Shown piece by piece: positions 8,271 through 58,989 of a stretch of DNA of 64,000 nt. The stretch lies in the NCBI GenBank assembly GCA_903842575.1, contig CAIMMM010000006.1, positions 11,456 to 75,455 of the forward strand, in the 5' to 3' direction. A program made the position numbers and the translations under genes. The notes beneath the pieces were generated by a model. That model saw nothing but the letters and a program-made list of their open reading frames with translations, searched no databases and was not told where the DNA came from. The DNA comes from an uncultured Bacteroidota bacterium. Lineage in GTDB: Bacteria; Bacteroidota; Bacteroidia; Flavobacteriales; Flavobacteriaceae. The number at the start of each line of letters is the position of its first letter. Within the stretch, counting starts at the first letter, position 1.

Positions 8271-8294
8271 TAAGCAATAAAATATCTTAATCAC

Positions 8295-8329: not shown

Positions 8330-8370
8330 ACTTTAATTAAAATGAATAATATTTTTGAATTAATAATTAT

Positions 8371-8925: not shown

Positions 8926-8989
8926 AATATAAATGTTTATTTTATTTTAGTTTATAAATGCAAAGTAATTCATTATATGAATGATATTA

Positions 8990-9005
8990 TATGATATTAA
9001 TCATA
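8990..9005. promoter_or_regulatory. Fnr/Crp-type palindrome TATGAT-atta-ATCATA upstream of the fasciclin gene
   Basis: Perfect 6+4+6 inverted repeat. Overlaps the stop codon of the 9001..10248 gene. Centre about 72 bp upstream of the fasciclin ATG. Confidence 0.5.
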
Positions 9006-10248: not shown

Positions 10249-10835
10249 TAGTAATATATTTTATGATTGATGATTTCTACCTTATTGCTAGCACTCATTT
10301 TAGCAAAAACACGTATTACAGTTTCTACTCTTAATCCCGTAAAATTAGCAATCTCTTGTCGTGTGAAAGGTACAATTTCTTTTTTGTCGCTATTTACTTT
10401 CTTATGTGCCTTTAAAAAAGCAATGATTCTAAACTCTGGTTTTTGATTAATTATAGCTGTAGTAGATTTTGCTTTGGAATGGATTCGTTTACACATCAAC
10501 TCCAAGAACTGTTTTTGAATATTAGGATATTCATCTAATATTTTTAAAAACTTTTCTTTCGACAATTTAATAATCTTGCTTTCTTGAAATGCAATCGCTA
10601 TTGATGGATATGTCTCATTAATAAACAAAGGAGGTTCACCAAAACTGTCTCCTGAATTAAAATATCCTTGTGTAAATTCTTTCCCTTCATCATTTGAATT
10701 AATCATTTTTACATTGCCATCCACAATTTGATAATAAAAATTAGCCGTTTCATTTTCATTAAAAATTACTTCGCCTTTTTTATATTCTTTAGCAATAGCT
10801 CCCCAAGTAAAAAGTAAATCTAAATCTATTTGCAT
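10248..10835 (-). CDS. Crp/Fnr family transcriptional regulator (no N-terminal Cys cluster)
   Basis: cNMP-binding-like beta-roll (GDSFGEPPLF). C-terminal HTH TRQEIANFTGLRVETVIRVFAKM with an E-T-V-x-R recognition helix like FNR. Only one Cys in the whole protein. Confidence 0.8.
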   Translation of the reverse strand: MQIDLDLLFTWGAIAKEYKKGEVIFNENETANFYYQIVDGNVKMINSNDEGKEFTQGYFNSGDSFGEPPLFINETYPSIAIAFQESKIIKLSKEKFLKILDEYPNIQKQFLELMCKRIHSKAKSTTAIINQKPEFRIIAFLKAHKKVNSDKKEIVPFTRQEIANFTGLRVETVIRVFAKMSASNKVEIINHKIYY

Positions 10836-12452: not shown

Positions 12453-12483
12453 AAAAAAGGAACTCCATTGAGTTCCTTTTTTT
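12453..12483. terminator. bidirectional rho-independent terminator between convergent genes
   Basis: AAAAAAGGAACTC-catt-GAGTTCCTTTTTTT. A perfect 7-bp GC-containing stem flanked by an A-run and a T-run. Confidence 0.7.
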
Positions 12484-13717
12484 ATTTCTTCAAAATTCCA
12501 ACAACCGTTCCCAACATAACATTGGCTCCAATTGCCAAATCTTCATAGGATGAATATTCTAGCGGATTATGACTAATGCCGTCTTTACAACGCACGAAGA
12601 TCATGCCGTAATCGCAGGCATAAGAAAGCGCTAATGCATCGTGGAATGGACCACTCATTAATTCAATTTCGTCCAATTGCAGTTTTTGACATTCGGCGTG
12701 AATAAGTTCTTTAATCCAATCGGCGCAATAACGTGGATCGCTTTTGGTATCTTCAGAGATTTCGTAAGTTAATTTATGTTTCTTAGTAATTCCTTCAATT
12801 CGGTCACGAAGTTGTTTCTCGTAGCGATTTCTTCGTTCCAAATCAATATCGCGTAAGTCAACGGTAAACGTCACTTCTTCGGGAATAATATTTCGGGAGG
12901 CTGGAAAAACATTAATAGTTCCAACGGTTCCAACGGTTGGCGCGCCAGGAATTTGAGTGGCAATTTCGTTAACCGCAACAATGATTTCTGCGGCACCAAC
13001 TAAAGCATCTTTTCTAATTGGCATTGGTACAGAACCTGTGTGTCCTGCCATTCCTTTGAGTTTGACTGTCCACCACAATGGTCCTGAAATTCCGGAAACC
13101 ACCCCAATAGGTTTGTTTGCCATATCGAGAACTGGGCCTTGTTCAATGTGTAATTCCAAAAAGCAAAAGATACTACCTTGCTTGTATTCGGAGGCTTTGA
13201 ATTGCGTAACATCGCAGCCAAAATCTTTTAACGCTTGTTCGCGCGTAATTCCGTCTTTATCGGCGCGTTGCAATTCGCCTTCTTCTAGTTTTCCTAGAAT
13301 CCCTCGGGAACCAAACAATCCTTTATTAAAACGCCAACCTTCTTCATCGGCAAAGGAAATCACTTCAATAGATCGCTCGGAAGCAATGTTGTTTTCATGC
13401 AGTGTCGCCACTACTTCAATGGCGCACAAAACGCCAGCTACGCCATCAAAGCGTCCGCCATAAGGTTGGGAATCGAGATGAGAGCCCATCATCAAAACTG
13501 GTAAGTCCGGATTTTTGCCTTCGAGTCTTCCGATTAGATTTCCAAAATTATCAATACGCGTTGTCATTCCGGCCTCTTGCATCCAAGAAGCAGCAATTTC
13601 AAATCCTTGCTTTTCGAGTGCTGTATGTGCCGGCCGACACGTTCCGGTTTCTCCAATTTTACCAATTAGACTCATGGCTTCAAAATGCTGCTGTAGTCTT
13701 TGAGAATTTATCTTCAT
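12482..13717 (-). CDS. M20-family amidohydrolase (allantoate amidohydrolase / N-carbamoyl-amino-acid / beta-ureidopropionase type)
   Basis: MMGSHLDSQPYGGRFDGVAGV, FADEEG and ELHIEQGPVL motifs typical of AmaB/AllC-type Zn hydrolases. Last gene of the pyrimidine operon. Confidence 0.75.
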   Translation of the reverse strand: MKINSQRLQQHFEAMSLIGKIGETGTCRPAHTALEKQGFEIAASWMQEAGMTTRIDNFGNLIGRLEGKNPDLPVLMMGSHLDSQPYGGRFDGVAGVLCAIEVVATLHENNIASERSIEVISFADEEGWRFNKGLFGSRGILGKLEEGELQRADKDGITREQALKDFGCDVTQFKASEYKQGSIFCFLELHIEQGPVLDMANKPIGVVSGISGPLWWTVKLKGMAGHTGSVPMPIRKDALVGAAEIIVAVNEIATQIPGAPTVGTVGTINVFPASRNIIPEEVTFTVDLRDIDLERRNRYEKQLRDRIEGITKKHKLTYEISEDTKSDPRYCADWIKELIHAECQKLQLDEIELMSGPFHDALALSYACDYGMIFVRCKDGISHNPLEYSSYEDLAIGANVMLGTVVGILKK

Positions 13718-13749
13718 GTTATTTTAGATTAAAGAACGTAGAATATAGA

Positions 13750-13795
13750 CTAAAGAAATATCACTACTTCTTTCCTCTATATTCTATTCTCTATT
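13750..13795. repeat. intergenic nested hairpin (M20 hydrolase / preA spacer)
   Basis: AGAATATAG..AAAGAA-n10-TTCTTT..CTATATTCT. Confidence 0.5.
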
Positions 13796-13808
13796 TTCTT
13801 ATTTCTTT

Positions 13809-15077
13809 TTAATGATCATTTAAAGGTAAGCCTTGAGCTTGCCAATCTTTCCAGTTCACATATTCGGGTGCTACACGATGTTCCTCCATGGTGATGCAAT
13901 TATCCACGGGGCAAACCAATTTACACAAATTACAACCCACACATTCTTCTTCTTTCACGGTGTAATTGTTGTGTGGATTACCTCTTTCCACATTGATAGA
14001 TTGGTGCGACGTGTCTTCGCAAGCGATAAAGCACAAACCACAATGGATGCATTTGTCTTGATCGATTTTGGCAATATGGTGGTAATTGATATCTAAATCT
14101 TCCCAGTGTGTAATTTTTTCAACTGATTTTCCAATGAAATCGGTTGTTTTTTGATACCCTTTTTCATCCATCCAATTGTTTAAACCTTCGCACATGTCTT
14201 CTACAATTCGGAAACCATGCGTCATAGCAGCGGTACAAACTTGCACGGAAGTTGCTCCCAAAAGCATAAATTCTACAGCATCTTTCCAAGTGCTCACCCC
14301 TCCAATACCAGAAATTGGAACTCGGGAGGCTACATCATCTTGTGCAATAGTAGTTAGCATTTTCAAAGCGATTGGTTTTACGGCAGGACCGCAATAGCCA
14401 CCAAAAACACTTTTACCAGCCACATACGGATTGGGAACTAGCGTGTCTAAATCAACTCCTGTCACACTTTGAATTGTATTGATTAAACTTAATGCATTTG
14501 TTCCTCCTTCTACAGCGCCTCGTGCTGTTGGAACTACCGAATGTACGTTGGGCGTTAATTTTGTTATCACAGGAATAGTTGCTTTTTCCATCACCCATTC
14601 CACTACCATTTTGGCAATAGCTGGATCTTGTCCAACTGCCGCTCCCATTCCGCGTTCAGTCATTCCGTGAGGACAACCAAAATTTAATTCAAATCCCATT
14701 GCGCCTGCATCTTCACATTTCATGATGAGATCGTGCCATGATTTACGGTCGTTGTCTGCCATCAGTGAAACAATCATCGCTCTGTCGGGAAACATTTTTA
14801 CGACTTGTGTAATTTCTTTTAGATTAATATCTAAAGGACGGTCGCTAATTAATTCGATATTATTGAAACCCATCATGCGTTTGCCTCCGTAATTTACAGA
14901 AGAGTAACGTGAGGAAACATTTTTGACTTGCGAGCCTAATGTTTTCCATACAACTCCGCCCCATCCTGCTTCAAAAGCACGAACAACGTTTATTAATTTA
15001 TCGGTAGGTGGCGCACTGGCCAACCAAAAAGGATTGGGTGATTTTATGCCTAAAAAATCTGTTGATATATCTGCCAT
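13809..15077 (-). CDS. preA: NAD-dependent dihydropyrimidine dehydrogenase subunit PreA
   Basis: Dihydroorotate-dehydrogenase-like TIM barrel plus two C-terminal 4Fe-4S motifs (CIHCGLCFIACED, CVGCNLCKLVCP). Confidence 0.85.
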   Translation of the reverse strand: MADISTDFLGIKSPNPFWLASAPPTDKLINVVRAFEAGWGGVVWKTLGSQVKNVSSRYSSVNYGGKRMMGFNNIELISDRPLDINLKEITQVVKMFPDRAMIVSLMADNDRKSWHDLIMKCEDAGAMGFELNFGCPHGMTERGMGAAVGQDPAIAKMVVEWVMEKATIPVITKLTPNVHSVVPTARGAVEGGTNALSLINTIQSVTGVDLDTLVPNPYVAGKSVFGGYCGPAVKPIALKMLTTIAQDDVASRVPISGIGGVSTWKDAVEFMLLGATSVQVCTAAMTHGFRIVEDMCEGLNNWMDEKGYQKTTDFIGKSVEKITHWEDLDINYHHIAKIDQDKCIHCGLCFIACEDTSHQSINVERGNPHNNYTVKEEECVGCNLCKLVCPVDNCITMEEHRVAPEYVNWKDWQAQGLPLNDH

Positions 15078-15119
15078 AATAGTATTATTTAGTTCCGATA
15101 GTTTCGGAAGTTGAATTTT

Positions 15120-16499
15120 TTAATTGTTGAATGTTGATTTTGGTTCCTCTACATAAGCTGCTCCAAGTACGTATTTAAGAATAGCATGTGCACCATCTTT
15201 CCCTGCTTGTACGGCATCAACTACTTCTTTACCTCCGTTTACACAATCGCCACCGGCAAAAATTCCTGTTTGATTGGTTGTTGCTTTGTCATTTATGATT
15301 AATTTCCCTTTATTGTTTTCAAAGGAATTGCTGTTTACCAAACTTTCAAAAGGCATTTGCCCAGCCGCCTTGATAACCATATCAACATCCAAAGTAAATG
15401 TTTCGCCAGAAACCAATGGGCTTCTTCTTCCGCTTGCATCAGGCTCCCCTAATTTCATTACATCGCAAACCAGTTGAGAAACTTTTCCGTTATCCCCTTT
15501 AATTTCTTTTGGCGCTGCCAACCAAATGATTTTACAACCATCCAATTTAGCAATATTCAATTCGTGTTCGGTGCATGGCATTTCATCTTGTGTTCTTCTG
15601 TAAACCAACGTCACATCGGAAGCGCCTAATCTTTTGGCTTGAGTAGCTGCATCGATAGCCGTCATTCCCATACCGATTACGGCTACTTTATCGCCAATAG
15701 CAATTTTGGAATAGTCGTTATTTCGCAATTCGTAGATGAATTTAATAGCATCTTCAACCCCTTCTAGGTGTTCGCCAGCAATGTCTAACTGACGTGCTAA
15801 TCCAACTCCAAATGCTAAATATACCGCATCATAATTACGTTGGAGTTCTTCAATACTAATATTTTTTCCTAATTCTTGGTTGTATTTAATATCAATTCCG
15901 CCAATAGAAGTGATATAATTCACCTCATCTTCACAGAATTCCGGCGTGACTTTATAGGCTGCAATTCCGTAAGTCATCAGTCCGCCACCTTTGCTTTCTT
16001 TTTCATAAATAGTTACATCTATTCCTTCTCGACTCAAGGTGTGTGCGCAGCTCAATCCAGATGGACCAGCACCAACAATCGCCACACGTTTCCCTGTTGC
16101 TGGTTTTCTTTCAAATAATTGCCATTTGTTTTTCATGGCGATTTCGGTGGAATAGCGTTGGAGTTTGGCAATGTGAATTGGTGTTTCGTGCATCATATTA
16201 TAGACACAAGCGCCTTCACATAATTTTTCTACGGGACACACTTTACTACATCCTGCGCCCATAATATTGGAAGAAAAAATTGTATGTGCCGAACCTTTTA
16301 AATTTTCTGTAGCGATTTGTTTGATGAATTTTGGAACGTTAATCGACGTTGGACATAACTTCATGCACGGCGGATCGTAGCAAAACAAACAGCGGTTCGC
16401 TTCTACCAAGGCTGCATCAGCTGTTTCAAAAGGAGGATGAATATCCGTGAAATTCTCTTGATATTCGGTTTGAGTTAATCGGTTACTCTTTATGCTCAT
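15120..16499 (-). CDS. preT: NAD-dependent dihydropyrimidine dehydrogenase subunit PreT (GltD-like)
   Basis: N-terminal Fe-S Cys motifs (CLFCYDPPC..CP) and a dinucleotide fold (VAIVGAGPSGLSCA). Confidence 0.85.
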   Translation of the reverse strand: MSIKSNRLTQTEYQENFTDIHPPFETADAALVEANRCLFCYDPPCMKLCPTSINVPKFIKQIATENLKGSAHTIFSSNIMGAGCSKVCPVEKLCEGACVYNMMHETPIHIAKLQRYSTEIAMKNKWQLFERKPATGKRVAIVGAGPSGLSCAHTLSREGIDVTIYEKESKGGGLMTYGIAAYKVTPEFCEDEVNYITSIGGIDIKYNQELGKNISIEELQRNYDAVYLAFGVGLARQLDIAGEHLEGVEDAIKFIYELRNNDYSKIAIGDKVAVIGMGMTAIDAATQAKRLGASDVTLVYRRTQDEMPCTEHELNIAKLDGCKIIWLAAPKEIKGDNGKVSQLVCDVMKLGEPDASGRRSPLVSGETFTLDVDMVIKAAGQMPFESLVNSNSFENNKGKLIINDKATTNQTGIFAGGDCVNGGKEVVDAVQAGKDGAHAILKYVLGAAYVEEPKSTFNN

Positions 16500-16521
16500 A
16501 TTTTGGTTGGTTTTATGGTTT

Positions 16522-16577
16522 TTGTCATTCTGAAGCAGGAAGAATCTCTGAGTTCTCTCCTTTGTTGGGATGACAAG
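16522..16577. repeat. intergenic inverted repeat of the GTCATTCTGA..GAAGAATCTC type (preT / CN-hydrolase spacer)
   Basis: TTGTCATTCTGAAGCAGGAAGAATCTC ... GGGATGACAAG. The arms pair over about 12 bp including G-U pairs. Confidence 0.5.
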
Positions 16578-16591
16578 TTTGTAAATATTTA

Positions 16592-17458
16592 TTACGGCGC
16601 AACAATTTCGCCATAAGTTTCTGGTCTTCTATCTCTGTAAAACTGCCATTTGCTTCTAATTTGTTCAATTAAATCCAAATCAAATTCGGCTATTAATAAC
16701 TCATCTTTATCTTCGGATGCGCAAGCAATTATTTCTCCTAAAGGATTGACAAAATAAGACGTTCCGTAAAAACGTCCCAAGTTCCATGGCTTTTCAATTC
16801 CCACACGGTTGATGCAACCCATAAAATAGCCATTAGCAACAGCATGTGCAGGTTGTTCAAGCTTCCATAAATTTTGTGATTGACCAACAGTTGTTGCTGA
16901 AGGATTGTATACTATTTCGGCGCCGTTCAATCCCAAACATCGAGCGCCATCTGGAAAGTGTCGGTCATAACAAATATAAACGCCTACTTTGGCATACTTC
17001 GTTTGAAAAACGGGATATCCTAAGTTCCCGGGCTTGAAGAAGAATTTCTCCCAAAATCCTCCGGTTTGTGGGATGTGGTTTTTGCGGTATTTACCCAAAT
17101 ACGTTCCGTCGGCATCAATGACAGCTGCGGTATTATATAAAACCCCTGCTTGATCTTTTTCATATACTGGTACAATGATGACCATGTCATATTTCTTGGC
17201 ATAAACTTGCATTCTCTCCGTCGTTGGGCCAGGCACGCTTTCTGCTGAAGCATACCAAGCGCTATCTTGTCCTGGGCAAAAGTAAGGCGTGTTAAAAATT
17301 TCCTGAAAACACAAGATTTGTACCCCTTGTCTTCCAGCTTCTTCAATATAGGGAATGTGCTTTTGCACCATCGCCTCCATGATTTCCGCAATCGTTCCTT
17401 CGCCTTCTGTTTTGGCTAAACTCAATTGAATTAGCCCTGATTTTACTATTCGCGCCAT
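16592..17458 (-). CDS. carbon-nitrogen hydrolase family, beta-ureidopropionase-like
   Basis: Nitrilase-superfamily Glu/Lys/Cys catalytic motifs (CFQEIF, KYRKNHIP, VYICYDRHFPD). Lies between preT and the dihydropyrimidinase gene. Confidence 0.75.
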   Translation of the reverse strand: MARIVKSGLIQLSLAKTEGEGTIAEIMEAMVQKHIPYIEEAGRQGVQILCFQEIFNTPYFCPGQDSAWYASAESVPGPTTERMQVYAKKYDMVIIVPVYEKDQAGVLYNTAAVIDADGTYLGKYRKNHIPQTGGFWEKFFFKPGNLGYPVFQTKYAKVGVYICYDRHFPDGARCLGLNGAEIVYNPSATTVGQSQNLWKLEQPAHAVANGYFMGCINRVGIEKPWNLGRFYGTSYFVNPLGEIIACASEDKDELLIAEFDLDLIEQIRSKWQFYRDRRPETYGEIVAP

Positions 17459-48501: not shown

Positions 48502-49167
48502 GTGCTTTTAATAAAAAAATATAGAATTTTTATTGCAACATTTTTTGTTTTCTCAATTATAACAATAGTTTTGTTTTATAGTGCTTTGAGTCCAAAAAAA
48601 ACGTTGCCAATATATAATCCCTCAGATATAAACCCTGAATTAGTAGACAGTACGGTGCAATATATCAGTAATTCACACACCATCGCCGATTTTTCTTTTA
48701 CTAATCAAAACGGGGAAATCATTACTCAAAAAGAATATGAAGGAAAAATTTATGTGGCCGATTTTTTCTTCACAACCTGTGGATCCATTTGTCCTAAAAT
48801 GACAACAAACATGGTAGATATTCAATCAACATTTCTTAATAACCCAAAAGTGATGTTGCTCTCTCATTCTGTTTTGCCCGATATTGATGATGTGGCTGCT
48901 TTGAAAGCATATGCCAAAAAAAATGGTGTTATTGATAGTAAATGGAATTTAGTTACTGGAGATAAAAAAGAAATTTACCGAATGGCTCGACAATCCTATT
49001 TAGCAGTAAAACAAGGAAAACCTAGCGAATTATACGATATGGTTCATACAGAAAACTTCGTTTTAGTAGATACTAAAAGGCGTGTGCGTGGGTTTTATGA
49101 CGGTACCAAAAACGAAGAAATCCAACGACTTATCGAGGATATCCGTTGGCTTTATAATGAGGAATAA
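48502..49167 (+). CDS. SCO1/SenC family thioredoxin-like copper chaperone
   Basis: N-terminal TM segment, FFFTTCGSICPKM (CxxxCP) and a conserved downstream His (VHTENF). GTG start. Confidence 0.75.
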   Translation: MLLIKKYRIFIATFFVFSIITIVLFYSALSPKKTLPIYNPSDINPELVDSTVQYISNSHTIADFSFTNQNGEIITQKEYEGKIYVADFFFTTCGSICPKMTTNMVDIQSTFLNNPKVMLLSHSVLPDIDDVAALKAYAKKNGVIDSKWNLVTGDKKEIYRMARQSYLAVKQGKPSELYDMVHTENFVLVDTKRRVRGFYDGTKNEEIQRLIEDIRWLYNEE

Positions 49168-49488: not shown

Positions 49489-51591
49489 ATGGATAGCAAA
49501 CGAAATATCAATATTGCTTTAATTGGAAATCCAAATACAGGTAAAACTTCTGTTTTTAATCAACTTACAGGGTTAAACCAGCAAGTTGGAAACTATCCTG
49601 GAATTACCGTGGAAAAAAAAATAGGCTTTTGCAAATTACCCAATAATTTAAAAGCAAACATCTTAGATTTACCCGGAACCTATAGTTTAAATGCTAGCTC
49701 TATTGATGAAAATGTTGTCATTGAATTGTTGCTCAACAAAAACGATAAGTTATATCCAGATGTTGTGCTTTTGATTACAGATGTAGAAAATCTTAAACGA
49801 AACCTACTGCTTTTCACCCAAATAAAAGACTTAGAAATCCCAACAATATTGGTCATCAATATGATTGACCGAATGAAATATAAAGGCATTTCACTTGACA
49901 TTCCTTATCTTGAAGAACAGTTAAAAACCAAAATTGCGCTTGTCAGTTCTAGAAAAAAAATGGGGATTGACGCATTGAAAGATTTGATAGTAAATTATAA
50001 ATCCCTTCCAACCAATTCGTGTTTAAATGCTTCAAGTATTGACACAGAATATTTTGATAAGTTACAAAAAACATTCCCAAATCAACTGTTGTATAAATTG
50101 TGGTTAGTAATTACACAGGACGTCAATTTTTTAAATTTAGAGCGTAAGGAAATCGAAAGTTCTTTTGCAAAATCACATACCGATTTAAAACGATTACAGC
50201 AAAAAGAAACCATAAAACGCTATCAATTTATTAATGATGTTTTAAAGACAGGATTAAAAATCGATGCTTCCATTGCAAAAGACTTTAGAAGTAAGTTGGA
50301 TCGTGTTTTAACCCATAAATTTTGGGGTTATGCGATTTTCTTTTTCATTTTGTTTGGCATTTTTCAATCCATATTTGAATGGTCTAAAGTTCCGATGAAT
50401 TTAATTGACACCACTTTTGCCTACTTAAGCACCGTCGCTAGTGAACAATTACCAACAGGTGTATTTACCAATTTAATTTCGCAAGGAATTATTCCGGGGA
50501 TTGGGGGAATTTTAATTTTTATTCCACAAATTGCCTTTCTGTTTTTGTTTATTTCCGTTCTTGAAGAAAGTGGTTACATGAGTCGCGTCGTGTTTTTAAT
50601 GGACAAAATCATGCGAAGATTTGGGCTTTCTGGGAAAAGTGTGGTGCCATTAATTTCGGGAACCGCTTGTGCCATTCCAGCCATTATGGCGACAAGAAAT
50701 ATAGAAAATTGGAAAGAACGATTAATTACAATACTGGTCACGCCTTTTACAACGTGTTCGGCTAGATTACCCGTTTACGCTATTATTATTGGGCTAGTAA
50801 TTCCCGACAAACGTGTTTTTGGAATTGTAAACATGCAAGGTTTAACCTTAATGTTACTTTATCTTTTAGGATTTGGTATGGCGCTTTTTTCTGCCTATGT
50901 TCTCAATAAAGTGCTGAAATTAAAGTGCAAAACTTTCTTTATTGTAGAAATGCCAAATTATAAACTCCCAATGTTTAAAAATGTTGCTATTAATGTAGTA
51001 GAAAAAACCAAAGCGTTTGTTTTTGGAGCGGGGAAAATCATTTTGGCAATCTCTGTAGTATTGTGGTTTTTGGCTTCTACGGGTCCTGGTAAAAAGTTTG
51101 ACAATGCGATAACTATTGTAAACTCAAAACCCGAAAATGCGGCGTTATCAAAATCAAATTTGAACAATAAAATTGCTTCCTATAAATTGGAAAACTCCTA
51201 TATTGGGGTGATGGGAAAATCCATTGAGCCTGCCATTTCTCCGTTGGGCTATGATTGGAAAATTGGCATTGCTGTGCTTAGTTCTTTTGCTGCAAGGGAA
51301 GTTTTTGTTGGGACACTAGCAACCATTTATAGTGTTGGGAGTACCGATAATGAAGACACCATAAAAAACAAAATGGCCACAGAAACCAATGACAAAACAG
51401 GCGCCAAAATTTTCAATTTTGCTTCTGGGATTTCTCTATTGTTATTCTATGCTTTTGCGATGCAATGTGCCAGTACTTTGGCTATTACAAAAAAAGAAAC
51501 CAATAGCTGGAAATGGCCTTTAGGACAATTGGTTTTCATGAGTGGATTGGCCTATCTTGTTGCTTTGATTGCTTATCAACTTTTAAAATAA
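49489..51591 (+). CDS. feoB: ferrous iron transporter B
   Basis: G-domain motifs (GNPNTGKTS, DLPGTYS, NMID) followed by the polytopic permease domain. Confidence 0.9.
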   Translation: MDSKRNINIALIGNPNTGKTSVFNQLTGLNQQVGNYPGITVEKKIGFCKLPNNLKANILDLPGTYSLNASSIDENVVIELLLNKNDKLYPDVVLLITDVENLKRNLLLFTQIKDLEIPTILVINMIDRMKYKGISLDIPYLEEQLKTKIALVSSRKKMGIDALKDLIVNYKSLPTNSCLNASSIDTEYFDKLQKTFPNQLLYKLWLVITQDVNFLNLERKEIESSFAKSHTDLKRLQQKETIKRYQFINDVLKTGLKIDASIAKDFRSKLDRVLTHKFWGYAIFFFILFGIFQSIFEWSKVPMNLIDTTFAYLSTVASEQLPTGVFTNLISQGIIPGIGGILIFIPQIAFLFLFISVLEESGYMSRVVFLMDKIMRRFGLSGKSVVPLISGTACAIPAIMATRNIENWKERLITILVTPFTTCSARLPVYAIIIGLVIPDKRVFGIVNMQGLTLMLLYLLGFGMALFSAYVLNKVLKLKCKTFFIVEMPNYKLPMFKNVAINVVEKTKAFVFGAGKIILAISVVLWFLASTGPGKKFDNAITIVNSKPENAALSKSNLNNKIASYKLENSYIGVMGKSIEPAISPLGYDWKIGIAVLSSFAAREVFVGTLATIYSVGSTDNEDTIKNKMATETNDKTGAKIFNFASGISLLLFYAFAMQCASTLAITKKETNSWKWPLGQLVFMSGLAYLVALIAYQLLK

Positions 51592-51825: not shown

Positions 51826-53697
51826 TTATATTTTTATAATAAATAACGGTATCGAAATTTTGTGCCGCAATTTATCCACCGTAGTGCCAAAAAGAATGTC
51901 TTTCAAACCGGTATGGCCATGGGTTCCCATTACAAGAAGATCGAAATTTCCTTCGTTAATAATCTTAGGAATTATTTTATTGGGTTTGCCAAATCCTAAT
52001 TTAGTGTCCACTTTAAATCCTTTTTCCGACAACATTTTGTAATAATCCATTAATAATTTTTCGTCAATGGTCGTTTCATGGTCAATAATTGTGCTGCCAT
52101 ACATCAAAGCACCTACGGTTTCTACCACATGAATAAGAGTGTAATTCGCATGAATACCGCCAAGCTCAAAAGCACTATTTAGCGCAATTTCATCTGCATT
52201 AGAGAAATCTACTGTAATGGCAATATTCTTTTTATCATAGGTTGCTGTTGGTGTAAATTTTAAAACCAAATTATGAGGAGAATGATTTTCGATAGTTGGT
52301 TTTGATTTTGTCATAAACGGATTAAAAACAATATAAAGCAATAAAATCAAAAAGCCAACGGCTACCGGAACAACCGTTAGCCAAAGCACAACTGGATTTT
52401 CTGAAGCGGCTAACCAATCCTGTATTTCATTAAAAACCAATTTTGCATTGAGCGAAACGATTACCAAAGCCACAAGCCAAGACGCAACTTGCGTCGTTTT
52501 ACTAATGGCAAAACCTTTCATCTTTTGTTTATCGCTTACAAAGTGAATTAAAGGAATAATGGCAAACCCCAATTGTAAACTCAAAATCACCTGACTCAAA
52601 ATAAGCAATTTCCCAGTCACACTTTCGCCAAAAACAGATATCACTATCAAAGCAGGTACGATAGCTATTAATCGGGTAATTATTCTTCGAACCCAAGGTT
52701 GAATCCTTAAATTTAGATAGCCTTCCATGATGATTTGCCCCGCTAAAGTCCCTGTTATTGTGGAGCTTTGCCCAGCTGCAATCAAAGCCACAGCAAACAA
52801 AATGGGCGCCCATTGCGTTCCTAAAAGTGGCGCTAAAAAGCGATGTGCATCTTGAATTTCCGCAACTTCAAACATGCCGTTTCGATAAAATGTGGCAGCA
52901 GCTAAAATCAATATCGCCGCATTAACAAAAAAAGCCAAGTTCAAAGCAATAGTACTATCAATGAAATTATATTTCAAGGCTTGTTTAATACCTTTGTTGC
53001 TTCGGTCAAATTTTCGCGTTTGTACCAAGGAAGAATGTAAATATAAATTGTGTGGCATAACCGTTGCGCCTATAATCCCAATGGCTATATACAAAGCTGT
53101 TTCGTTTGGCATACTCGGAATTAAACCTTTAAGAACACTCCCAACTTCGGGTTGGGCAAAAATCATTTCAAAAATAAAGGAAACACCAATAATGACTACC
53201 AATGCAATAATAAAAGCTTCCATTTTTCGGATGCCTTTATTGATTAAGAAAAGGAGCAGAAATGTATCCAAAACGGTAATCATAACGCCTTGAATCAAAG
53301 GAATTCCAAATAATAAATTAATACCAATGGCCATCCCCAAAACTTCAGCCAAGTCGCAAGCCGCAATGGCTATTTCGGCAAGAAAATAAAGAATATAATT
53401 AATGAATTTAGAATAGGTTTCTCGGGAGGCTTGTGCCAAGTCGCGCTGAGTAACTATCCCCAATCGGGCACTTAAACTTTGTAAAAGCAATGCCATGATA
53501 TTACTCATCAGTAAAACCCAAAGTAGTGCATACCCAAACTGACTTCCGCCCGCAATATCGGTTGCCCAATTTCCTGGGTCCATATAACCCACACTTACCA
53601 AATAGGCCGGACCAAAAAAGGCAAGGATTTTTCTAAAAACAGTGGTTTTATTTTGGGTAGGAACCGATTGGTTTACTTCTTCTAAAGATTTTCCCAT
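51826..53697 (-). CDS. mntH: Nramp family divalent metal transporter fused to a C-terminal universal stress protein (USP) domain
   Basis: GPAYLVSVGYMDPGNWATD (Nramp DPGN motif) and ATVMPHNLYLHS. The last ~145 aa carry USP-like LVMGTHGHTGLKDILFGTT. Confidence 0.8.
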   Translation of the reverse strand: MGKSLEEVNQSVPTQNKTTVFRKILAFFGPAYLVSVGYMDPGNWATDIAGGSQFGYALLWVLLMSNIMALLLQSLSARLGIVTQRDLAQASRETYSKFINYILYFLAEIAIAACDLAEVLGMAIGINLLFGIPLIQGVMITVLDTFLLLFLINKGIRKMEAFIIALVVIIGVSFIFEMIFAQPEVGSVLKGLIPSMPNETALYIAIGIIGATVMPHNLYLHSSLVQTRKFDRSNKGIKQALKYNFIDSTIALNLAFFVNAAILILAAATFYRNGMFEVAEIQDAHRFLAPLLGTQWAPILFAVALIAAGQSSTITGTLAGQIIMEGYLNLRIQPWVRRIITRLIAIVPALIVISVFGESVTGKLLILSQVILSLQLGFAIIPLIHFVSDKQKMKGFAISKTTQVASWLVALVIVSLNAKLVFNEIQDWLAASENPVVLWLTVVPVAVGFLILLLYIVFNPFMTKSKPTIENHSPHNLVLKFTPTATYDKKNIAITVDFSNADEIALNSAFELGGIHANYTLIHVVETVGALMYGSTIIDHETTIDEKLLMDYYKMLSEKGFKVDTKLGFGKPNKIIPKIINEGNFDLLVMGTHGHTGLKDILFGTTVDKLRHKISIPLFIIKI

Positions 53698-54316: not shown

Positions 54317-54727
54317 ATGTATCCAGAAGAAATGATTAAACCAATGCGAACTGAATTGTCAGACGCTGGTTTTCAAGATTTATATAGTGCTGACGCCGTT
54401 GAAAATGCTATCAAAGCGGAAGGAACTACACTAGTGGTTATAAATTCTGTTTGCGGTTGTGCTGCAAGAAATGCACGTCCGGGAGCAAAAATGAGTTTGG
54501 ATGGCGCCAAAAAACCGGATCATTTAGTTACGGTTTTTGCTGGTGTTGACAAAGAAGCTGTTGATGCAGCTCGGGAGCATATGTTCCCTTTTCCTCCATC
54601 TTCGCCAAGCCTGGCTTTGTTTAAAAATGGGGAGTTGGTTCACATGCTAGAACGTCATCACATTGAAGGCCGTCCTGCAGAAATGATTGCAGAAAATTTG
54701 AAAGACGCTTACGCTGAATTCTGTTAA
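54317..54727 (+). CDS. BrxA/BrxB family bacilliredoxin (DUF1094)
   Basis: VINSVCGCAARNARPG (CGC redox motif) in a thioredoxin-like fold of about 136 aa. Confidence 0.75.
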   Translation: MYPEEMIKPMRTELSDAGFQDLYSADAVENAIKAEGTTLVVINSVCGCAARNARPGAKMSLDGAKKPDHLVTVFAGVDKEAVDAAREHMFPFPPSSPSLALFKNGELVHMLERHHIEGRPAEMIAENLKDAYAEFC

Positions 54728-54746
54728 TCAGAAAAAATCATCATCA

Positions 54747-54783
54747 AAACCTTTTAGAAAGCCATTTCTGAAAGGTTTTTTTA
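54747..54783 (+). terminator. rho-independent terminator after the bacilliredoxin gene
   Basis: AACCTTTtAGAAAgccaTTTCTgAAAGGTT followed by TTTTTT. Confidence 0.7.
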
Positions 54784-54823
54784 TTTTAATCCTTTTCAAA
54801 TCTCCAAATTTTCAAATTTATTT

Positions 54824-54831
54824 TACCTTTG
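54824..54831 (+). promoter_or_regulatory. TAnnTTTG -7 box for the trhO-radical SAM-U32-ferredoxin unit
   Basis: TACCTTTG, 57 nt upstream of ATG 54888. Confidence 0.4.
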
Positions 54832-54887: not shown

Positions 54888-56276
54888 ATGCAACTGTATA
54901 ACACCTTAAGCGCAGAAGAAAGAGCCGAGCTTATTGACCAAGCCGGAAAACAAAGACTTACTTTGTCTTTTTATGCGTATGCCAAAATTGAAAACCCAAA
55001 AGAATTTAGAGACGCTTTATTTTTAGCTTGGAATAGGCTAGATGCCCTTGGCCGAACTTATGTAGCCAAAGAAGGAATCAATGCCCAAATGTCGGTTCCC
55101 GCTGAAAATTTTGAAGTTTTTCGGGAGACCTTAGAAGCTTATAATTTCATGAAAAACATTCGTTTGAATGTGGCTGTAGAACACGACGATCATTCGTTTT
55201 TGAAACTCACTGTAAAAGTGCGTGATAAGATTGTTGCCGATGGATTGAATGATGAAACCTTTGATGTAACGGATATTGGCGTGCACTTAAAAGCTAATGA
55301 ATTCAATCAAATTTTGGAGGATCCCAACACTATTGTAGTTGATTTTAGAAATCATTACGAAAGCGAAATAGGACATTTCAAGGGAGCGATTACTCCTGAT
55401 GTGGAAACTTTCAGAGAAAGTTTACCTATCATAAACGAACAATTAAAAGACTTCAAGGAAGATAAAAATCTAGTGATGTATTGCACCGGAGGCATTCGTT
55501 GTGAAAAAGCTTCTGCCTATTTTAAGCATCAAGGATTTAAAAATGTATTTCAATTGGAAGGCGGCATTATTAATTATGCCAAACAAATCAAGGAAGAAAA
55601 TTTGGAGAGTAAGTTTATCGGGAAAAATTTTGTTTTTGATCATCGTTTGGGGGAAAGAATTACAGACGATATTGTTTCTCAATGTCATCAATGTGGGAAT
55701 CCTTGTGACAATCATACCAATTGTGAAAACGAGGGGTGTCATTTGCTGTTTATCCAATGTGATAGTTGCAAAGTCGCTATGGAAAATTGTTGCTCTGCCG
55801 AATGTCAGGAAATTATTCATATGTCATTGGTAGAACAAGTGAAATTACGTCGCGGCGTAAAGAATGGCAATAAAATTTTTAGAAAAGGAAAATCAGATAA
55901 ATTGGTATACAAACATTCTGGTGACTCGAGAGCAAAGATCGAACAGACGGTGCAATTGTCGAATATTGCTTTATCAACTTTTAAAAATCCAACGGCTATT
56001 CGACAAAAAATTAAAATCAAAAAAACACTACTCGGTAAAGCAGCGCATTATTTTACAAAAGCCAGTGTGGGTCTTTTTATCATTGAAAATAAGGAATTGA
56101 ATGTTGGTGATAAAATCTTAATATCGGGTCCAACCACGGGTAATGAGGAATTACTATTAGAAAAAATGTTGGTCAATGGAGCTGAAAACACAGTTGCAAA
56201 ACAAGGGGACAAAGTTACTTTTGCTTTACCGTTTCGGATTCGACTTTCAGATAAATTGTATAAATTAAACACATAA
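54888..56276 (+). CDS. trhO: rhodanese-type tRNA uridine(34) hydroxylase TrhO (UPF0176/YceA family) fused to a U32-peptidase C-terminal-like module
   Basis: TLSFYAYAKI..GRTYVAKEGINAQMSVP, rhodanese loop YCTGGIRCEKAS and a Cys-rich Zn-finger-like tail. The last ~85 aa (KKTLLGK..LPFRIRLSDKLYKLNT) align with the C-terminus of the U32 protein at 57365..58606. Confidence 0.75.
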   Translation: MQLYNTLSAEERAELIDQAGKQRLTLSFYAYAKIENPKEFRDALFLAWNRLDALGRTYVAKEGINAQMSVPAENFEVFRETLEAYNFMKNIRLNVAVEHDDHSFLKLTVKVRDKIVADGLNDETFDVTDIGVHLKANEFNQILEDPNTIVVDFRNHYESEIGHFKGAITPDVETFRESLPIINEQLKDFKEDKNLVMYCTGGIRCEKASAYFKHQGFKNVFQLEGGIINYAKQIKEENLESKFIGKNFVFDHRLGERITDDIVSQCHQCGNPCDNHTNCENEGCHLLFIQCDSCKVAMENCCSAECQEIIHMSLVEQVKLRRGVKNGNKIFRKGKSDKLVYKHSGDSRAKIEQTVQLSNIALSTFKNPTAIRQKIKIKKTLLGKAAHYFTKASVGLFIIENKELNVGDKILISGPTTGNEELLLEKMLVNGAENTVAKQGDKVTFALPFRIRLSDKLYKLNT

Positions 56277-56285
56277 CTACAAGCA

Positions 56286-57320
56286 ATGGATATCTATAAA
56301 GTTTTAAAATTTAACAACTATATCAAAAGTCATCGAATAAAATTCTTTGGATTGTGGCTGCTTAGCATTTTAAACAAAAGATACCTTTCGATCCAATTTG
56401 ACCCTGTTTTAGCGTGCAATCTTCGCTGTAAAATGTGCTATTTTACCGATGCCGATTATGTTAAAAAAAACATGAAAGGAATTTTTCCTGAAGCTGATTT
56501 GGAAAATTTAGCCAACGTTAATTTTAAAAATGCGCTGAAATTACAAATTGGTTGCGGTGCCGAACCAACCCTTTTCAAACACAACACCAAGCTGATTGAA
56601 ATAGCCAAAAAACAAAATGTTCCTTACATCAGTATGGTTACTAATGGCAATTTGTTGACAACAAAAGACATTCATGAATTTGCCACAGCTGGACTAAATG
56701 AATTCATCCTTTCCATGCATGGCGTTACCAAAGAAACCTATGAAGACCTAATGGATAAAGGGGTATATGAAAAATTTCATGAAGTTTTAGGGCTTATAAC
56801 GGAGCAGAAAAAAACCAATCCAAAATTGCGTTTGCGTATCAATTACACCTTTAATCAGGATAATTTCCATGAACTAAAAGACTTTTTTAAAGTGTATAAT
56901 CAATATGCCATTGATATTATCCAATTGCGACCTATTGATAAAATAGGAGAAACAACCTATGATAATTTCAGTTTAAAAGCCATAGAAAATGAGTATCCGG
57001 AAATATCCAATTTTCTAAAAACGGAATGTGTAAAAAGAGGCGTTACACTTTTATTTCCGGAATCGATTATGCGAAATGAGAATGAATCCTTAGTAGTGAA
57101 AACCGAAAACAACAGTTCCTATCTGCTTCCCTACACCTATTGTTATGTTTCCCCAAGCTATTATTGGAAGGGTGATTTTGATTGGAAAAAAGAAACTTTT
57201 TCAAGTTGGCAAAAAAGAAATAACTGGAATCAAACTTTGTTTAAAAACATATTTATATCAAAAAAAGAGCTCGAAAAACCCAACAGAAACATGTTGAATT
57301 ACTCCATCTCTATTAGCTAA
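56286..57320 (+). CDS. radical SAM protein, function unknown
   Basis: ACNLRCKMCYF (CxxxCxxC) and a GCGAEPT glycine-rich SAM motif. No SPASM-type second Cys cluster is evident. Confidence 0.75.
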   Translation: MDIYKVLKFNNYIKSHRIKFFGLWLLSILNKRYLSIQFDPVLACNLRCKMCYFTDADYVKKNMKGIFPEADLENLANVNFKNALKLQIGCGAEPTLFKHNTKLIEIAKKQNVPYISMVTNGNLLTTKDIHEFATAGLNEFILSMHGVTKETYEDLMDKGVYEKFHEVLGLITEQKKTNPKLRLRINYTFNQDNFHELKDFFKVYNQYAIDIIQLRPIDKIGETTYDNFSLKAIENEYPEISNFLKTECVKRGVTLLFPESIMRNENESLVVKTENNSSYLLPYTYCYVSPSYYWKGDFDWKKETFSSWQKRNNWNQTLFKNIFISKKELEKPNRNMLNYSISIS

Positions 57321-57364
57321 TTTGCTTTGTATTACTTTAATAAATTATTTAAAATTAAACGCTA

Positions 57365-58606
57365 ATGACAAATTCAGGAAAAATTGAACTTATGGCTCCT
57401 GCAGGGAATTTCGAATCCCTGCAAGCGGCTCTAGATAATGGTTGTGATTCCATTTATTTTGGCGTAGAACAATTAAATATGCGCGCTCGGGCCACCGTAA
57501 ATTTTGTTTTAGAAGATTTGCCAGAAATTGCCCGTAGATGTAAAGAAAAAAATGTTAGGACCTATTTAACATTAAATACAATTATTTATGATCATGATTT
57601 ATCCCTTGTAAAAACACTTTTAACAAAAGCAAAAAAAGCAGGAATTACAGCCGTTATCGCTTCGGATCAAGCCGTAATTATGACGGCAAAAACAATGGGA
57701 ATTGAAGTGCATATTTCTACCCAATTGAATGTCACCAATGTTGAAACGGTTAAGTTTTATGCAATGTTTGCCGATACAATTGTGCTTTCTCGCGAATTGA
57801 GTTTGCGTCAAGTGAAAAAAATCACGGATGCTATCAAAAAAGAATGCGTTATAGGTCCAAGCGGTAATTTAATAGAAATAGAAATCTTTGGCCACGGCGC
57901 TTTATGTATGGCCGTTTCCGGGAAATGCTATTTGAGTTTGCATTCCCATAATTCCTCTGCAAATCGTGGCGCTTGTAAACAAAATTGCAGAAAAAAATAT
58001 ACCGTAATCGACCAAGAAAGCGGTTTCGAAATTGAAGTTGACAACGAATATTTAATGTCTCCAAAAGATTTATGCACACTAGACTTTTTGGATCAAGTAA
58101 TCGATTCAGACATTAAAGTATTGAAAATTGAAGGTCGCGGAAGAGCTGCCGATTATGTAGCAACAGTTATCAAAACCTATCGCGATGCAATTGATTCGTA
58201 CTACGAAGGAACATTCACCAAGGAAAAAATCAACACTTGGATGGAAGCCTTGTCAACCGTTTATAATCGTGGATTTTGGAGCGGTTATTACCTTGGACAA
58301 AAATTAGGGGAATGGTCGGATAATCCCGGGTCGAGTGCTACACAAAAGAAAGTATATGTTGGAAAAGGAATTAATTATTTTGTAAAATCTAGTGTGGCCG
58401 AATTCAAAATTGAGGCTTACGATATTAAAAAAGGCGATAAAATTTTAATTACTGGCGCAACAACTGGAGCTCAAGAATTAATTATTGAGAACATGTTTGT
58501 AAACGACATCCATTCGGATAAAGCAACCAAGGGCGATAGTTGTACTATGAAAGTGCCTTTTAGAATTCGATTGTCGGATAAAATATATAAAATTGTGGAA
58601 GCCTAA
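57365..58606 (+). CDS. U32 family protein (TrhP/RlhA/UbiU-type O2-independent hydroxylase family, formerly 'peptidase U32')
   Basis: U32 signature EIFGHGALCMAVSGKCYLS plus RGACKQNC (4 Cys, candidate Fe-S site). C-terminal beta-barrel-like module ending VPFRIRLSDKIYKIVEA. Confidence 0.8.
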   Translation: MTNSGKIELMAPAGNFESLQAALDNGCDSIYFGVEQLNMRARATVNFVLEDLPEIARRCKEKNVRTYLTLNTIIYDHDLSLVKTLLTKAKKAGITAVIASDQAVIMTAKTMGIEVHISTQLNVTNVETVKFYAMFADTIVLSRELSLRQVKKITDAIKKECVIGPSGNLIEIEIFGHGALCMAVSGKCYLSLHSHNSSANRGACKQNCRKKYTVIDQESGFEIEVDNEYLMSPKDLCTLDFLDQVIDSDIKVLKIEGRGRAADYVATVIKTYRDAIDSYYEGTFTKEKINTWMEALSTVYNRGFWSGYYLGQKLGEWSDNPGSSATQKKVYVGKGINYFVKSSVAEFKIEAYDIKKGDKILITGATTGAQELIIENMFVNDIHSDKATKGDSCTMKVPFRIRLSDKIYKIVEA

Positions 58607-58836
58607 TGATCATTGTTACATTGCAAAGAGACAAGTGTATTGGCTGCAATTACTGTGTGGAAATGGCTCCGGCACAATTTCAAATGTCAAAAAAAGATGG
58701 TAAATCGGTGCTAATTAAATCGGTTAATGCCAAAGGGTTTTACACTCTAAAATCGCAAGACCACACTATTGCCGAAAATTGTGAGTTAGCGGCAAAAGCC
58801 TGCCCCGTTCATATTATTTCAATTAAGGAAATGTAA
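58606..58836 (+). CDS. small ferredoxin
   Basis: 76 aa with CIGCNYC ... CP. Its ATG overlaps the TAA of the U32 gene (TAATG at 58604..58608). Confidence 0.7.
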   Translation: MIIVTLQRDKCIGCNYCVEMAPAQFQMSKKDGKSVLIKSVNAKGFYTLKSQDHTIAENCELAAKACPVHIISIKEM

Positions 58837-58989
58837 GCTGTTTCCATCCCGTTTTATTTATTTTAAACAACTTTTTTCTAACTTAATAAAGTTTCGAATT
58901 TTAACTTTTGACCTTAATTCAAAAATACTATCTTTACAAATTAATCGTTTTATAAACTTAAATTGCTTTTTAGCAATACTACATATATT

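Follow-up and report, generated by a model that had tools for sequence, protein, structure and literature searches.

Hydroxylation of uridine 34 of tRNA to 5-hydroxyuridine (ho5U34) is known to proceed by two routes, one carried out by TrhO with O2 and the other by TrhP, without O2 and using prephenate (PMC6599085), and the two routes co-occur significantly across genomes (Sakai 2019, PMC6599085). TrhP, RlhA and UbiU/V are O2-independent, prephenate-dependent hydroxylases of the U32 family, for which a two-electron oxidation of the substrate has been proposed, the electron acceptor being unidentified (PMC10990095). Here we analyse a cluster of four genes encoding a TrhO, an orphan radical SAM enzyme, a U32 iron-sulfur (Fe-S) protein and a small ferredoxin, found at positions 54,888 to 58,836 of a 64,000-nucleotide (nt) stretch of DNA from an uncultured member of the Flavobacteriaceae (assembly GCA_903842575.1, contig CAIMMM010000006.1, positions 11,456 to 75,455 of the forward strand; hereafter the window). 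The original prediction, made from the sequence alone, saw in these genes both routes wired into one transcription unit together with their electron carrier and the radical SAM enzyme. The analysis suggests that the locus is probably a dual O2-dependent/O2-independent tRNA U34 hydroxylation operon. With moderate confidence, we read it as a Flavobacterium operon making 5-hydroxyuridine at U34 via two routes, in which the U32 protein and its ferredoxin would serve the O2-independent one, a C-terminal barrel is shared by the two hydroxylases and the radical SAM enzyme is a separate module. Genomic context, namely a tight and conserved TrhO-U32-ferredoxin arrangement and a shared domain, thus supports the core of the earlier proposal; the inclusion of the radical SAM enzyme and the orthology labels did not stand.

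The U32 domains have been split into 12 subfamilies, with PrtC of Porphyromonas gingivalis falling into the uncharacterised PepU32#4, and RlhA is defined by a U32 domain, a DUF3656 domain and C-terminal cysteines (Kimura et al. 2017, PMC5727448). TrhP of the yegQ type is mainly proteobacterial, while TrhP1 and TrhP2 (PepU32#5 and #3) occur in Firmicutes, some Tenericutes and some Cyanobacteria (Sakai 2019, PMC6599085). According to Supplementary Data 1 of the same study, F. columnare, F. johnsoniae and F. branchiophilum each harbor one PepU32#4 and one RlhA1 protein, and F. psychrophilum RlhA1 only; the PepU32#4 protein of F. johnsoniae, a species that also has TrhO, is A5FLH8. In Supplementary Data 2, TrhO and TrmR are recorded for Flavobacterium, Gramella and Robiginitalea and TrhP, TrhP1 and TrhP2 are not, while P. 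gingivalis and Capnocytophaga ochracea are TrmR-positive with neither TrhO nor TrhP.

The four open reading frames lie on the plus strand at 54888-56276, 56286-57320, 57365-58606 and 58606-58836 (genes 1 to 4; 462, 344, 413 and 76 amino acids (aa)). Genes 1 and 2 are separated by 9 nt and genes 2 and 3 by 44 nt, and genes 3 and 4 overlap by 1 nt in a TAATG, exactly as first described. The motifs quoted at that time were likewise all recovered: the translation of gene 1 contains GINAQMSVP and CTGGIRCE, that of gene 2 CNLRCKMC and that of gene 3 EIFGHGALCMAVSGKCYLS. Of the profile searches then proposed, those with UPF0176_N/Rhodanese, PF04055, PF01136 and Fer4_15/Fer4_13 found their targets, and the Peptidase_U32_C model left gene 3 unmatched.

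Gene 1 carries three Pfam domains (UPF0176_N, Rhodanese and Rhodanese_C), scores 262.5 bits against the NCBIfam TrhO equivalog NF001133 (cut-off 170) and retains the cysteine of the rhodanese active-site loop (CTGGIRCE, residues 199-206). By these marks it is a genuine TrhO, as anticipated, and hence a predicted O2-dependent tRNA U34 hydroxylase. Its match to the tRNA uridine(34) hydroxylase of Protein Data Bank (PDB) entry 9j5o (E 3.8e-57) covers residues 17-308 only, and the protein exceeds ordinary TrhO by some 110-150 residues. An acidic core (residues 1-309, isoelectric point (pI) 5.1) is followed by a basic linker (residues 310-377, pI 10.9) and by an added C-terminal domain (residues 378-462; 56019..56273, plus strand). 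Over residues 378-460, TrhO shares 52% identity with the protein encoded by gene 3 (residues 328-410; E 1e-23), which makes its extra domain a paralog of the C-domain of the neighbouring U32 protein (residues 328-413; 58346..58603, plus strand), the source type of the appendage. This sharing of a domain between TrhO and a U32 protein is a new finding that the original prediction had missed.

The AlphaFold model of the TrhO copy (predicted local distance difference test score (pLDDT) 91.8) is a U32_C-type β-barrel. In the PDB it resembles most closely 4HE5 and 4HE6, which show the C-terminal domain of a putative U32 peptidase from Geobacillus thermoleovorans (template modelling (TM) score 0.78-0.83, root-mean-square deviation 1.7-1.8 Å); next in rank are the domain II barrels of EF1A, eIF5B, EF-Tu and IF2, a domain that binds tRNA in the last two. 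Through this model of a 52% identical copy, the U32_C fold can also be assigned to the C-domain of gene 3 despite the miss by Pfam Peptidase_U32_C. A C-terminal motif, LPFRIRLSDKLYK, is invariant in the barrel copies of both the TrhO and the U32 classes. Sequence searches were far less informative: neither copy was recognised by Pfam even at E ≤ 10, the C-domain profile returned chance-level RecA matches only when run against PDB sequences, and hhalign, given this profile and E. coli TrhP, placed the match correctly but with little strength (E 0.019, probability 2.4%). Since the similarity of the C-domain to the C-terminus of E. coli TrhP is weak (E 0.02-0.05), the claim of homology rests on the fold match to 4HE5/4HE6. 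The TrhO barrel is basic (pI 9.5), and from its charge and fold relatives we infer that it may bind tRNA.

In a survey centred on the radical SAM gene (see below), the barrel was limited to Flavobacterium-like TrhO (loci L001-L023) and was missing from the TrhO of Winogradskyella, Algibacter, Lacinutrix and other genera. A neighbour-joining tree groups the TrhO copies into one clade apart from all U32 C-domains, as would be expected had the barrel been captured once, long ago, and then inherited vertically, and the barrel is kept even where a locus has no U32 gene. With the 85-aa C-domain as query, the homologs retrieved were gene fragments only and provided no survey of architectures. A barrel common to TrhO and the U32 protein gives independent support to the idea of a common substrate.

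Gene 3 (57365..58606, plus strand) matches PF01136 (Peptidase_U32) with 233 bits and contains a CX6CX15CX3C motif (C181/C188/C204/C208; 57905..57988, plus strand), a pattern of the type described as the [4Fe-4S] motif of most U32 families (Pelosi et al. 2019, PMC6747719). With the TrhP type it has in common the U32 domain, the four-cysteine Fe-S motif and, as modelled, the C-terminal barrel. The “TrhP/RlhA-type” label given earlier had to be abandoned: the protein scores 190.9 bits where the TrhP equivalog NF011996 requires 534, and lies at similar distances from the E. coli paralogs RlhA (29% identity, 148 bits), UbiU (29%, 134 bits) and TrhP (26%, 118 bits). Against RlhA speaks the absence of DUF3656, PF01136 being the only domain found, together with a length of 413 aa versus 653 aa for the E. 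coli enzyme. The UbiU and UbiV scores (158 bits for a cut-off of 440, and 52.7 for a cut-off of 275) are also insufficient, the locus holds neither a second U32 gene nor an SCP2/UbiT gene, and a sequence search against the PDB returned nothing at E ≤ 0.01. The window protein is 87% identical to a 413-aa protein of F. columnare, several of its homologs being named “Collagenase” in UniRef. This identity and the absence of DUF3656 leave PepU32#4 as the probable subfamily of gene 3, a placement made by elimination from the Sakai table. Capnocytophaga is tabulated with PepU32#4 (Sakai 2019, PMC6599085), and P. gingivalis has it in the form of PrtC (PMC5727448), so a hydroxylase is missing exactly where PepU32#4 is present. 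In the literature that we searched, no paper assigns PepU32#4 or PrtC to tRNA hydroxylation.

Gene 4 (58606..58836, plus strand), whose start overlaps the stop of gene 3 by 1 nt, encodes a 76-aa ferredoxin, as foreseen, matching Fer4_15 and Fer4_13. It has a single set of cluster ligands, C11xxC14xxC17...C66P. The suggested likeness to E. coli YfhL (86 aa) was not borne out: YfhL is of the two-cluster type, gene 4 has the one CxxCxxC...CP set, and BLASTP aligned the cluster-binding cysteine motifs only (E about 0.014). YfhL is said to have been implicated in the E. coli TrhP route by Lauhon in 2019; a full-text literature search for YfhL found nothing.

The conservation of the cluster was examined in about 170 related loci through three surveys, centred on the radical SAM gene, on U32 look-ups and on TrhO, respectively. 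The first covered 80 species genomes and used a 13-sequence alignment for the locus scan, a 50-sequence one being too divergent. The most frequent arrangement was TrhO-radical SAM-RicT-GldH-PBP1A, with a TrhO lacking the appendage at 27 loci and carrying it at 10, plus a few with a partial or split TrhO. TrhO-U32-ferredoxin-radical SAM was found at 16 loci (18 including two variants), and the window's own order, TrhO-radical SAM-U32-ferredoxin, at five, but with a TrhO devoid of the barrel. Rarer forms were U32-radical SAM-ferredoxin (2 loci) and U32-ferredoxin-radical SAM without TrhO (1-2 loci); at 8 loci the radical SAM gene had none of these partners. The U32-centred look-ups revealed TrhO(+barrel)-U32-ferredoxin-RicT-GldH-PBP1A in F. 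columnare, in Flavobacterium sp. HNIBRBA15423 and around the closest metagenomic U32 homolog (92%); in all three loci the TrhO and U32 genes have 1-4 nt in common and no radical SAM gene is present. On another contig the same trio is retained, with SusC/SusD in place of RicT.

The TrhO-centred survey, unbiased as to downstream genes, comprised 80 metagenomic loci with a TrhO 78-90% identical to that of the window. Downstream of TrhO we found U32-ferredoxin at 38 loci, RicT directly, with neither module, at 30 and the radical SAM gene at 8; four loci were too short to tell. The two modules never occurred together (0 of 80), and the three closest relatives of the window (TrhO core 92-95% and radical SAM 90-92% identical) read Brx-TrhO-radical SAM-RicT without U32-ferredoxin. 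The four-gene order that the original prediction had expected across relatives, and on which it had staked itself, is therefore not conserved. An alignment of the junctions places the window's U32-ferredoxin pair within the radical SAM-RicT intergenic region of these relatives. A complementary pattern, in which a locus would carry either the radical SAM gene or U32-ferredoxin, was considered and rejected, 30 of the 76 informative TrhO-centred loci having neither. The presence of one module is independent of that of the other, and the exact combination seen in the window is rare while the TrhO-U32-ferredoxin trio is conserved.

Within the trio, U32 and ferredoxin form an inseparable two-gene cassette; at 30 of 31 loci the gap between them is -1 nt. 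From TrhO to U32 the distance ranges from -4 to 19 nt, and the median gap is 0 nt from TrhO to radical SAM (46 loci) and 15 nt from ferredoxin to radical SAM. The gaps to RicT are of another order, with a median of 154 nt (minimum 97) after radical SAM and of 173 nt after ferredoxin. RicT being always at least 97 nt away, versus about 0-15 nt inside the cluster, the boundary of the unit falls before ricT: TrhO, U32-ferredoxin and radical SAM are one tightly packed unit that ends there. Upstream, the unit is bounded by a terminator-like hairpin with a 15-pair stem and a T-run (54746..54787, plus strand; stem and T-run at 54746-54779), situated 3' of a BrxA/BrxB bacilliredoxin gene (54317-54727, identified by profile matches), so the terminator attributed earlier to the preceding gene was indeed there. 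No terminator-like site was found between the four genes.

The candidate operon promoter is a Bacteroidota-type -7 box, TACCTTTG (54824..54831, plus strand), 56 nt upstream of the trhO ATG. The box lies where it had been reported; its motif class, TAnnTTTG, is not enriched in the window (80 matches versus 99 ± 10 expected), which makes it suggestive by position only. Downstream, a block beginning with ACTATCTTTACAAATTAATCG and containing a near-consensus -7 box, TATCTTTA, with one mismatch to TAnnTTTG, extends over 58927..58952 (plus strand) ahead of ricT (ATG 58990). The block is conserved in loci L105 and L106 and in the window, as it is in all of the closest relatives whose junctions were aligned, and the region is likely ricT's own promoter, hence the downstream boundary of the unit. 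The stretch after the ferredoxin stop (CTTTTTTCTAACTTAATAAAGTTT) resembles that after the radical SAM stop (CTTTGTATTACTTTAATAAATTAT), a likeness that hints at recombination between two locus types.

Three further observations deserve mention. In a Gelidibacter metagenome-assembled genome, the space from trhO to the radical SAM gene holds a truncated ferredoxin remnant preceded by stop codons (L063:1299-1421), which looks like the relic of a deleted U32-ferredoxin cassette. A 5-formyltetrahydrofolate cyclo-ligase gene directly follows the U32/radical SAM/ferredoxin trio in two Flavobacteriales lineages with a different trio order (L061:6010-6597 and L037:3816-4373). In Flavobacterium CP031557.1 (L001:1980-7086), genes for a WYL regulator and the RNA ligase RtcB stand directly upstream of TrhO(+barrel)-radical SAM, and RicT-GldH-PBP1A is absent.

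The mechanism that we propose would run as follows. One promoter upstream of trhO would drive all four genes. TrhO would supply the O2-dependent route to ho5U34, and the PepU32#4 [4Fe-4S] protein the O2-independent one, presumably with prephenate. The single-cluster ferredoxin, translationally coupled to it, would take away two electrons from the substrate, as acceptor or as relay. The copy of the U32's basic C-terminal β-barrel acquired by the Flavobacterium TrhO would probably be a common tRNA-docking module, and the radical SAM enzyme, although presumably co-transcribed here, would be a module of this operon slot that is acquired and lost on its own and is probably dispensable for either hydroxylation route. 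Other genes of the window code for the anaerobic ribonucleotide reductase NrdD and an NrdG-like activase, for ScdA/RIC, FeoB and a Crp/Fnr regulator, and for a NorB-like oxidase accompanied by a cytochrome c; they make life at low oxygen plausible and would give a second route its purpose.

Several observations weigh against this proposal. As TrhO stands alone at 30 of the 76 informative TrhO-centred loci, its pairing with U32-ferredoxin is evidently facultative. Most of the synteny evidence comes from a single order of bacteria, in which the unrelated RicT-GldH-PBP1A and RecA are conserved neighbours as well. Gene 3 is no closer to TrhP than to RlhA or UbiU by sequence and fails the TrhP cut-off, so that its proposed substrate is drawn from context and domain sharing only. 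The barrel could dock something other than tRNA, for instance the ferredoxin or another partner. Data on tRNA modification in Flavobacterium were not found in the literature searched. Finally, two features speak against treating the radical SAM enzyme as a passenger: it abuts TrhO with a median gap of 0 nt in the 46 loci and stays with U32 and ferredoxin in Apibacter-type operons that lack TrhO.

The distances to the E. coli paralogs also leave room for a different substrate, and it is possible, though in our view doubtful, that the U32-ferredoxin pair acts elsewhere than on U34 (another RNA position, a quinone or an aromatic metabolite), its adjacency to trhO reflecting inherited synteny or a regulation, by oxygen or iron, common to both. 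The literature cited gives no characterisation of PepU32#4, the pair behaves as a movable cassette, and an iron/redox theme runs through the neighbourhood (FeoB, an Nramp-like transporter, bacilliredoxin and RicT). However, Flavobacterium already has a separate RlhA1-type protein for rRNA, and gene 3 possesses neither the domain that defines RlhA nor a UbiT-like partner at the locus. It does carry the barrel that Sakai 2019 (PMC6599085) noted in TrhP and TrhP2 (YrrO) and not in TrhP1 (YrrN). TrhO copied exactly this U32 barrel and has kept it under selection, which is hard to explain unless both enzymes share a ligand, and the two genes overlap by 1-4 nt in many species.

The place of gene 2 (56286..57320, plus strand), an optional module of the operon, calls for separate consideration. 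Its assignment as a CxxxCxxC radical SAM enzyme holds: it matches the generic Radical_SAM model PF04055 (51.6 bits), and C44, C48 and C51 of the CX3CX2C motif are nearly invariant in 50 family members. In this 50-member alignment there are no auxiliary-cluster cysteines, the sole conserved cysteine beyond the cluster ligands being C90 in GCGAEPT. Against the named NCBIfam families considered (MoaA, viperin/pVip, HpnH, SPASM maturases, Tes, TYW1 and YhcC/MnmL) the protein scores 32-59 bits for cut-offs of 180-650. Its own family comprises about 104 clusters at 50% identity (E ≤ 1e-30), with a length of about 335-345 aa and the motifs DPVLACNLRCxMCYFS, LQIGCGAEPT, TNGQLL, SxHG, LRINYTVN and LQxRP. 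The model is confident (TIM-barrel-like, pLDDT 92) and resembles generic cores (BlsE, SuiB, MoaA, anSME, DesII and viperin; TM 0.50-0.56), the best PDB sequence match having an E of 0.003. A viperin/pVip defence role was rejected, the pVip match of 64 bits spanning a partial core and falling below the cut-off.

Tentatively, this enzyme may be a third player in wobble-uridine chemistry, either as a substitute partner for TrhO that needs neither O2 nor prephenate or as a follow-on enzyme modifying ho5U/xo5U34, an option to which we give limited credence. Such a role would explain its 0-nt packing directly 3' of trhO across Flavobacteriaceae and its place flanked by U32 and ferredoxin genes in Apibacter-type operons. 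It occurs inside the cluster in four permutations (TrhO-radical SAM, TrhO-U32-ferredoxin-radical SAM, TrhO-radical SAM-U32-ferredoxin and U32-radical SAM-ferredoxin), the last one in Apibacter, where U32 and radical SAM overlap by 4 nt and ferredoxin follows after 4 nt with no TrhO nearby. It stays with U32/ferredoxin in five lineages without an adjacent TrhO, and in broken blocks it is found more often with TrhO or U32 than with RicT. The family is basic (median pI 9.2), pairs of aerobic and anaerobic enzymes such as MnmC versus YhcC/MnmL or NrdAB versus NrdDG offer a model, and there is precedent for a radical SAM enzyme replacing an O2-dependent tRNA-modifying one (PMC13602947). On the other side, it is present at only 8 of the 80 TrhO-centred loci, never with U32-ferredoxin there, and operons of the F. 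columnare type do without it. No RNA-binding domain was detected in it, and its fold neighbours are generic. Outside Flavobacteriales, homologs at 30-42% identity have neighbours unrelated to TrhO and U32 (DAHP synthase/chorismate mutase in Tenuifilaceae, RecA, a Na+/H+ exchanger and UDP-glucose dehydrogenase). Even Flavobacteriaceae copies that are 50-72% identical, when outside the TrhO block, adjoin GT2 glycosyltransferases, a methyltransferase, CysS, PorZ, or Bcp and RecA. With the four-gene set unconserved and these neighbourhoods unrelated outside Flavobacteriales, a role in RNA modification remains speculation.

A reading that we regard as unlikely, though worth stating, gives the radical SAM enzyme a small-molecule substrate of the nucleotide or nucleotide-sugar type with no link to RNA, and explains its place in Flavobacteriaceae by a promoter shared with trhO. 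Its best fold neighbours (BlsE, MoaA, DesII and viperin, with TM scores of only 0.5-0.56) act on nucleoside-linked substrates, and its best profile matches are the viperin, MoaA and pVip cores. Sugar or glycan contexts also recur, with epimerases and a GT4 glycosyltransferase beside the Magnetospirillum homolog, UDP-glucose dehydrogenase, a dTDP-sugar isomerase nearby, and GT2 with a methyltransferase at L048 and L015. However, all scores against named families lie far under the cut-offs, the fold matches stay at the level of the generic core, the contexts are heterogeneous, and the members with the strongest sugar links are also the most divergent (about 30% identity) and may form a different subfamily.

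UniRef names (“Collagenase”, “putative protease”) and the literature on P. gingivalis PrtC of the same subfamily would make gene 3 a collagenase or another protease. This is highly improbable given its N-terminus, which does not resemble a signal peptide, its conserved four-cysteine Fe-S motif, an operon shared with a ferredoxin and a tRNA hydroxylase, and the fact that the U32 members studied by modern genetics are all components of O2-independent hydroxylases.

Two observations concern the wider neighbourhoods of these families. In Tenuifilaceae (L083/L084:6001-8202), the gene for a fused DAHP synthase/chorismate mutase, which supplies prephenate, lies 76 nt downstream of the radical SAM homolog (41% identity), and cytochrome bd oxidase genes lie upstream; this link to prephenate supply was seen in one lineage only. 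The recA gene recurs at L043, L067, L086 and L101, in the arrangements RecA-U32-radical SAM, Bcp-radical SAM-RecA, radical SAM-RecA (9-nt gap) and RecA(-)-TrhO. Its recurrence in distant Bacteroidota probably reflects ancient synteny rather than function, and demonstrates that the region harbours old synteny devoid of functional meaning.

Elsewhere in the window, positions 2844-10835 have a low GC content (0.29-0.31 versus about 0.35-0.40 elsewhere) and look like an island for anaerobic life and nitric oxide (NO) stress, with ScdA/RIC (2844-3572), NrdD (3605-5719), a 193-aa radical SAM protein that is likely the NrdG activase (5954-6535), a COX1-family NorB-like protein (6506-7843), a cytochrome c (7833-8270), a fasciclin protein and a Crp/Fnr regulator (10248-10835). 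The segment 48799-54727, upstream of the operon, contains iron/redox genes, namely a SCO1/SenC-like one (48799-49167), FeoB (49489-51591), a 623-aa protein on the minus strand (51826-53697) whose N-terminal part is Nramp/MntH-like by its motifs, and the bacilliredoxin; RicT, which follows the operon, is an Fe-S protein. An M20 peptidase-type amidohydrolase (12482-13717), a PreA/dihydropyrimidine dehydrogenase-like protein with DHO_dh and 4Fe-4S dicluster domains (13809-15077) and a carbon-nitrogen hydrolase (16592-17458) may constitute a reductive pyrimidine catabolism cluster (12482-17458). No tRNA genes or Rfam families were found in the window.

The eye-catching set of four genes is thus a rare meeting of two independent modules, and the TrhO-U32-ferredoxin trio takes priority for experiments. 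PepU32#4, including PrtC, is a large uncharacterised subfamily widely annotated as protease, to which the TrhO operon and the donation of a domain now give a testable function, that of an O2-independent tRNA U34 hydroxylase of Bacteroidota with a ferredoxin as candidate electron partner. If true, this would explain the source of ho5U in TrmR-positive species devoid of TrhO and TrhP, such as P. gingivalis and Capnocytophaga. None of the U32 hydroxylases has been reconstituted in vitro and their acceptor is stated to be unknown (PMC10990095); a ferredoxin overlapping the U32 gene from stop to start in 30 of 31 loci is an obvious candidate. The fusion of TrhO with a U32 barrel further points to this barrel as the part with which both enzyme classes likely dock their substrates.

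Compared with the described systems, the closest parallel is the E. coli pair TrhO (YceA) and TrhP (YegQ), which likewise joins a rhodanese-type TrhO to a U32 Fe-S protein with a C-terminal barrel in an aerobic/anaerobic redundancy (PMC6599085). The E. coli genes are unlinked, whereas those of the window stand in one operon with a ferredoxin gene attached, and the window U32 protein, of the probable PepU32#4 type, is 26% identical to TrhP and under the equivalog cut-off. E. coli-type TrhO and the 9j5o structure lack the U32-type barrel of the window TrhO. The reported E. coli YfhL route would also link a small ferredoxin to U32-dependent ho5U synthesis; that of the window differs in being a single-cluster Fer4_13/Fer4_15 protein, encoded in the operon and 76 rather than 86 aa long.

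The trmR-trhP1-trhP2 operon of Bacillus subtilis (yrrMNO) is the only described xo5U34-synthesis operon built around U32 proteins. Its TrhP2 (YrrO) has the architecture of the window U32 protein, a U32 domain followed by a C-terminal barrel, and the best fold matches of the barrel, 4HE5 and 4HE6, come from a Geobacillus U32 protein. B. subtilis combines two U32 paralogs (PepU32#5 and #3) with a methyltransferase and has neither TrhO nor ferredoxin in this operon, while the window has one U32 protein (probably PepU32#4), a TrhO and a ferredoxin, and no trmR. With P. gingivalis PrtC the likeness is one of classification: Supplementary Data 1 of Sakai 2019 puts Flavobacterium proteins of the gene 3 type into the U32 subfamily of PrtC. 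Descriptions of PrtC make it a protease or virulence factor, and the window context argues instead for an RNA hydroxylase role. The UbiU-UbiV-UbiT system of O2-independent ubiquinone hydroxylation (Pelosi 2019, 2024) also relies on U32 [4Fe-4S] proteins, with prephenate as oxygen donor and a need for an electron acceptor (PMC10990095), a role that the window ferredoxin could fill. It differs in being a heterodimer of two U32 proteins with the lipid-binding UbiT and a lipid substrate, and the window U32 protein reaches 158 bits against the UbiU cut-off of 440. The parts of the locus are thus of known kinds, and what sets it apart is the union of both routes in one operon, the pairing of a U32 protein from a subfamily without assigned function with a dedicated ferredoxin, and the TrhO-plus-U32-barrel architecture.

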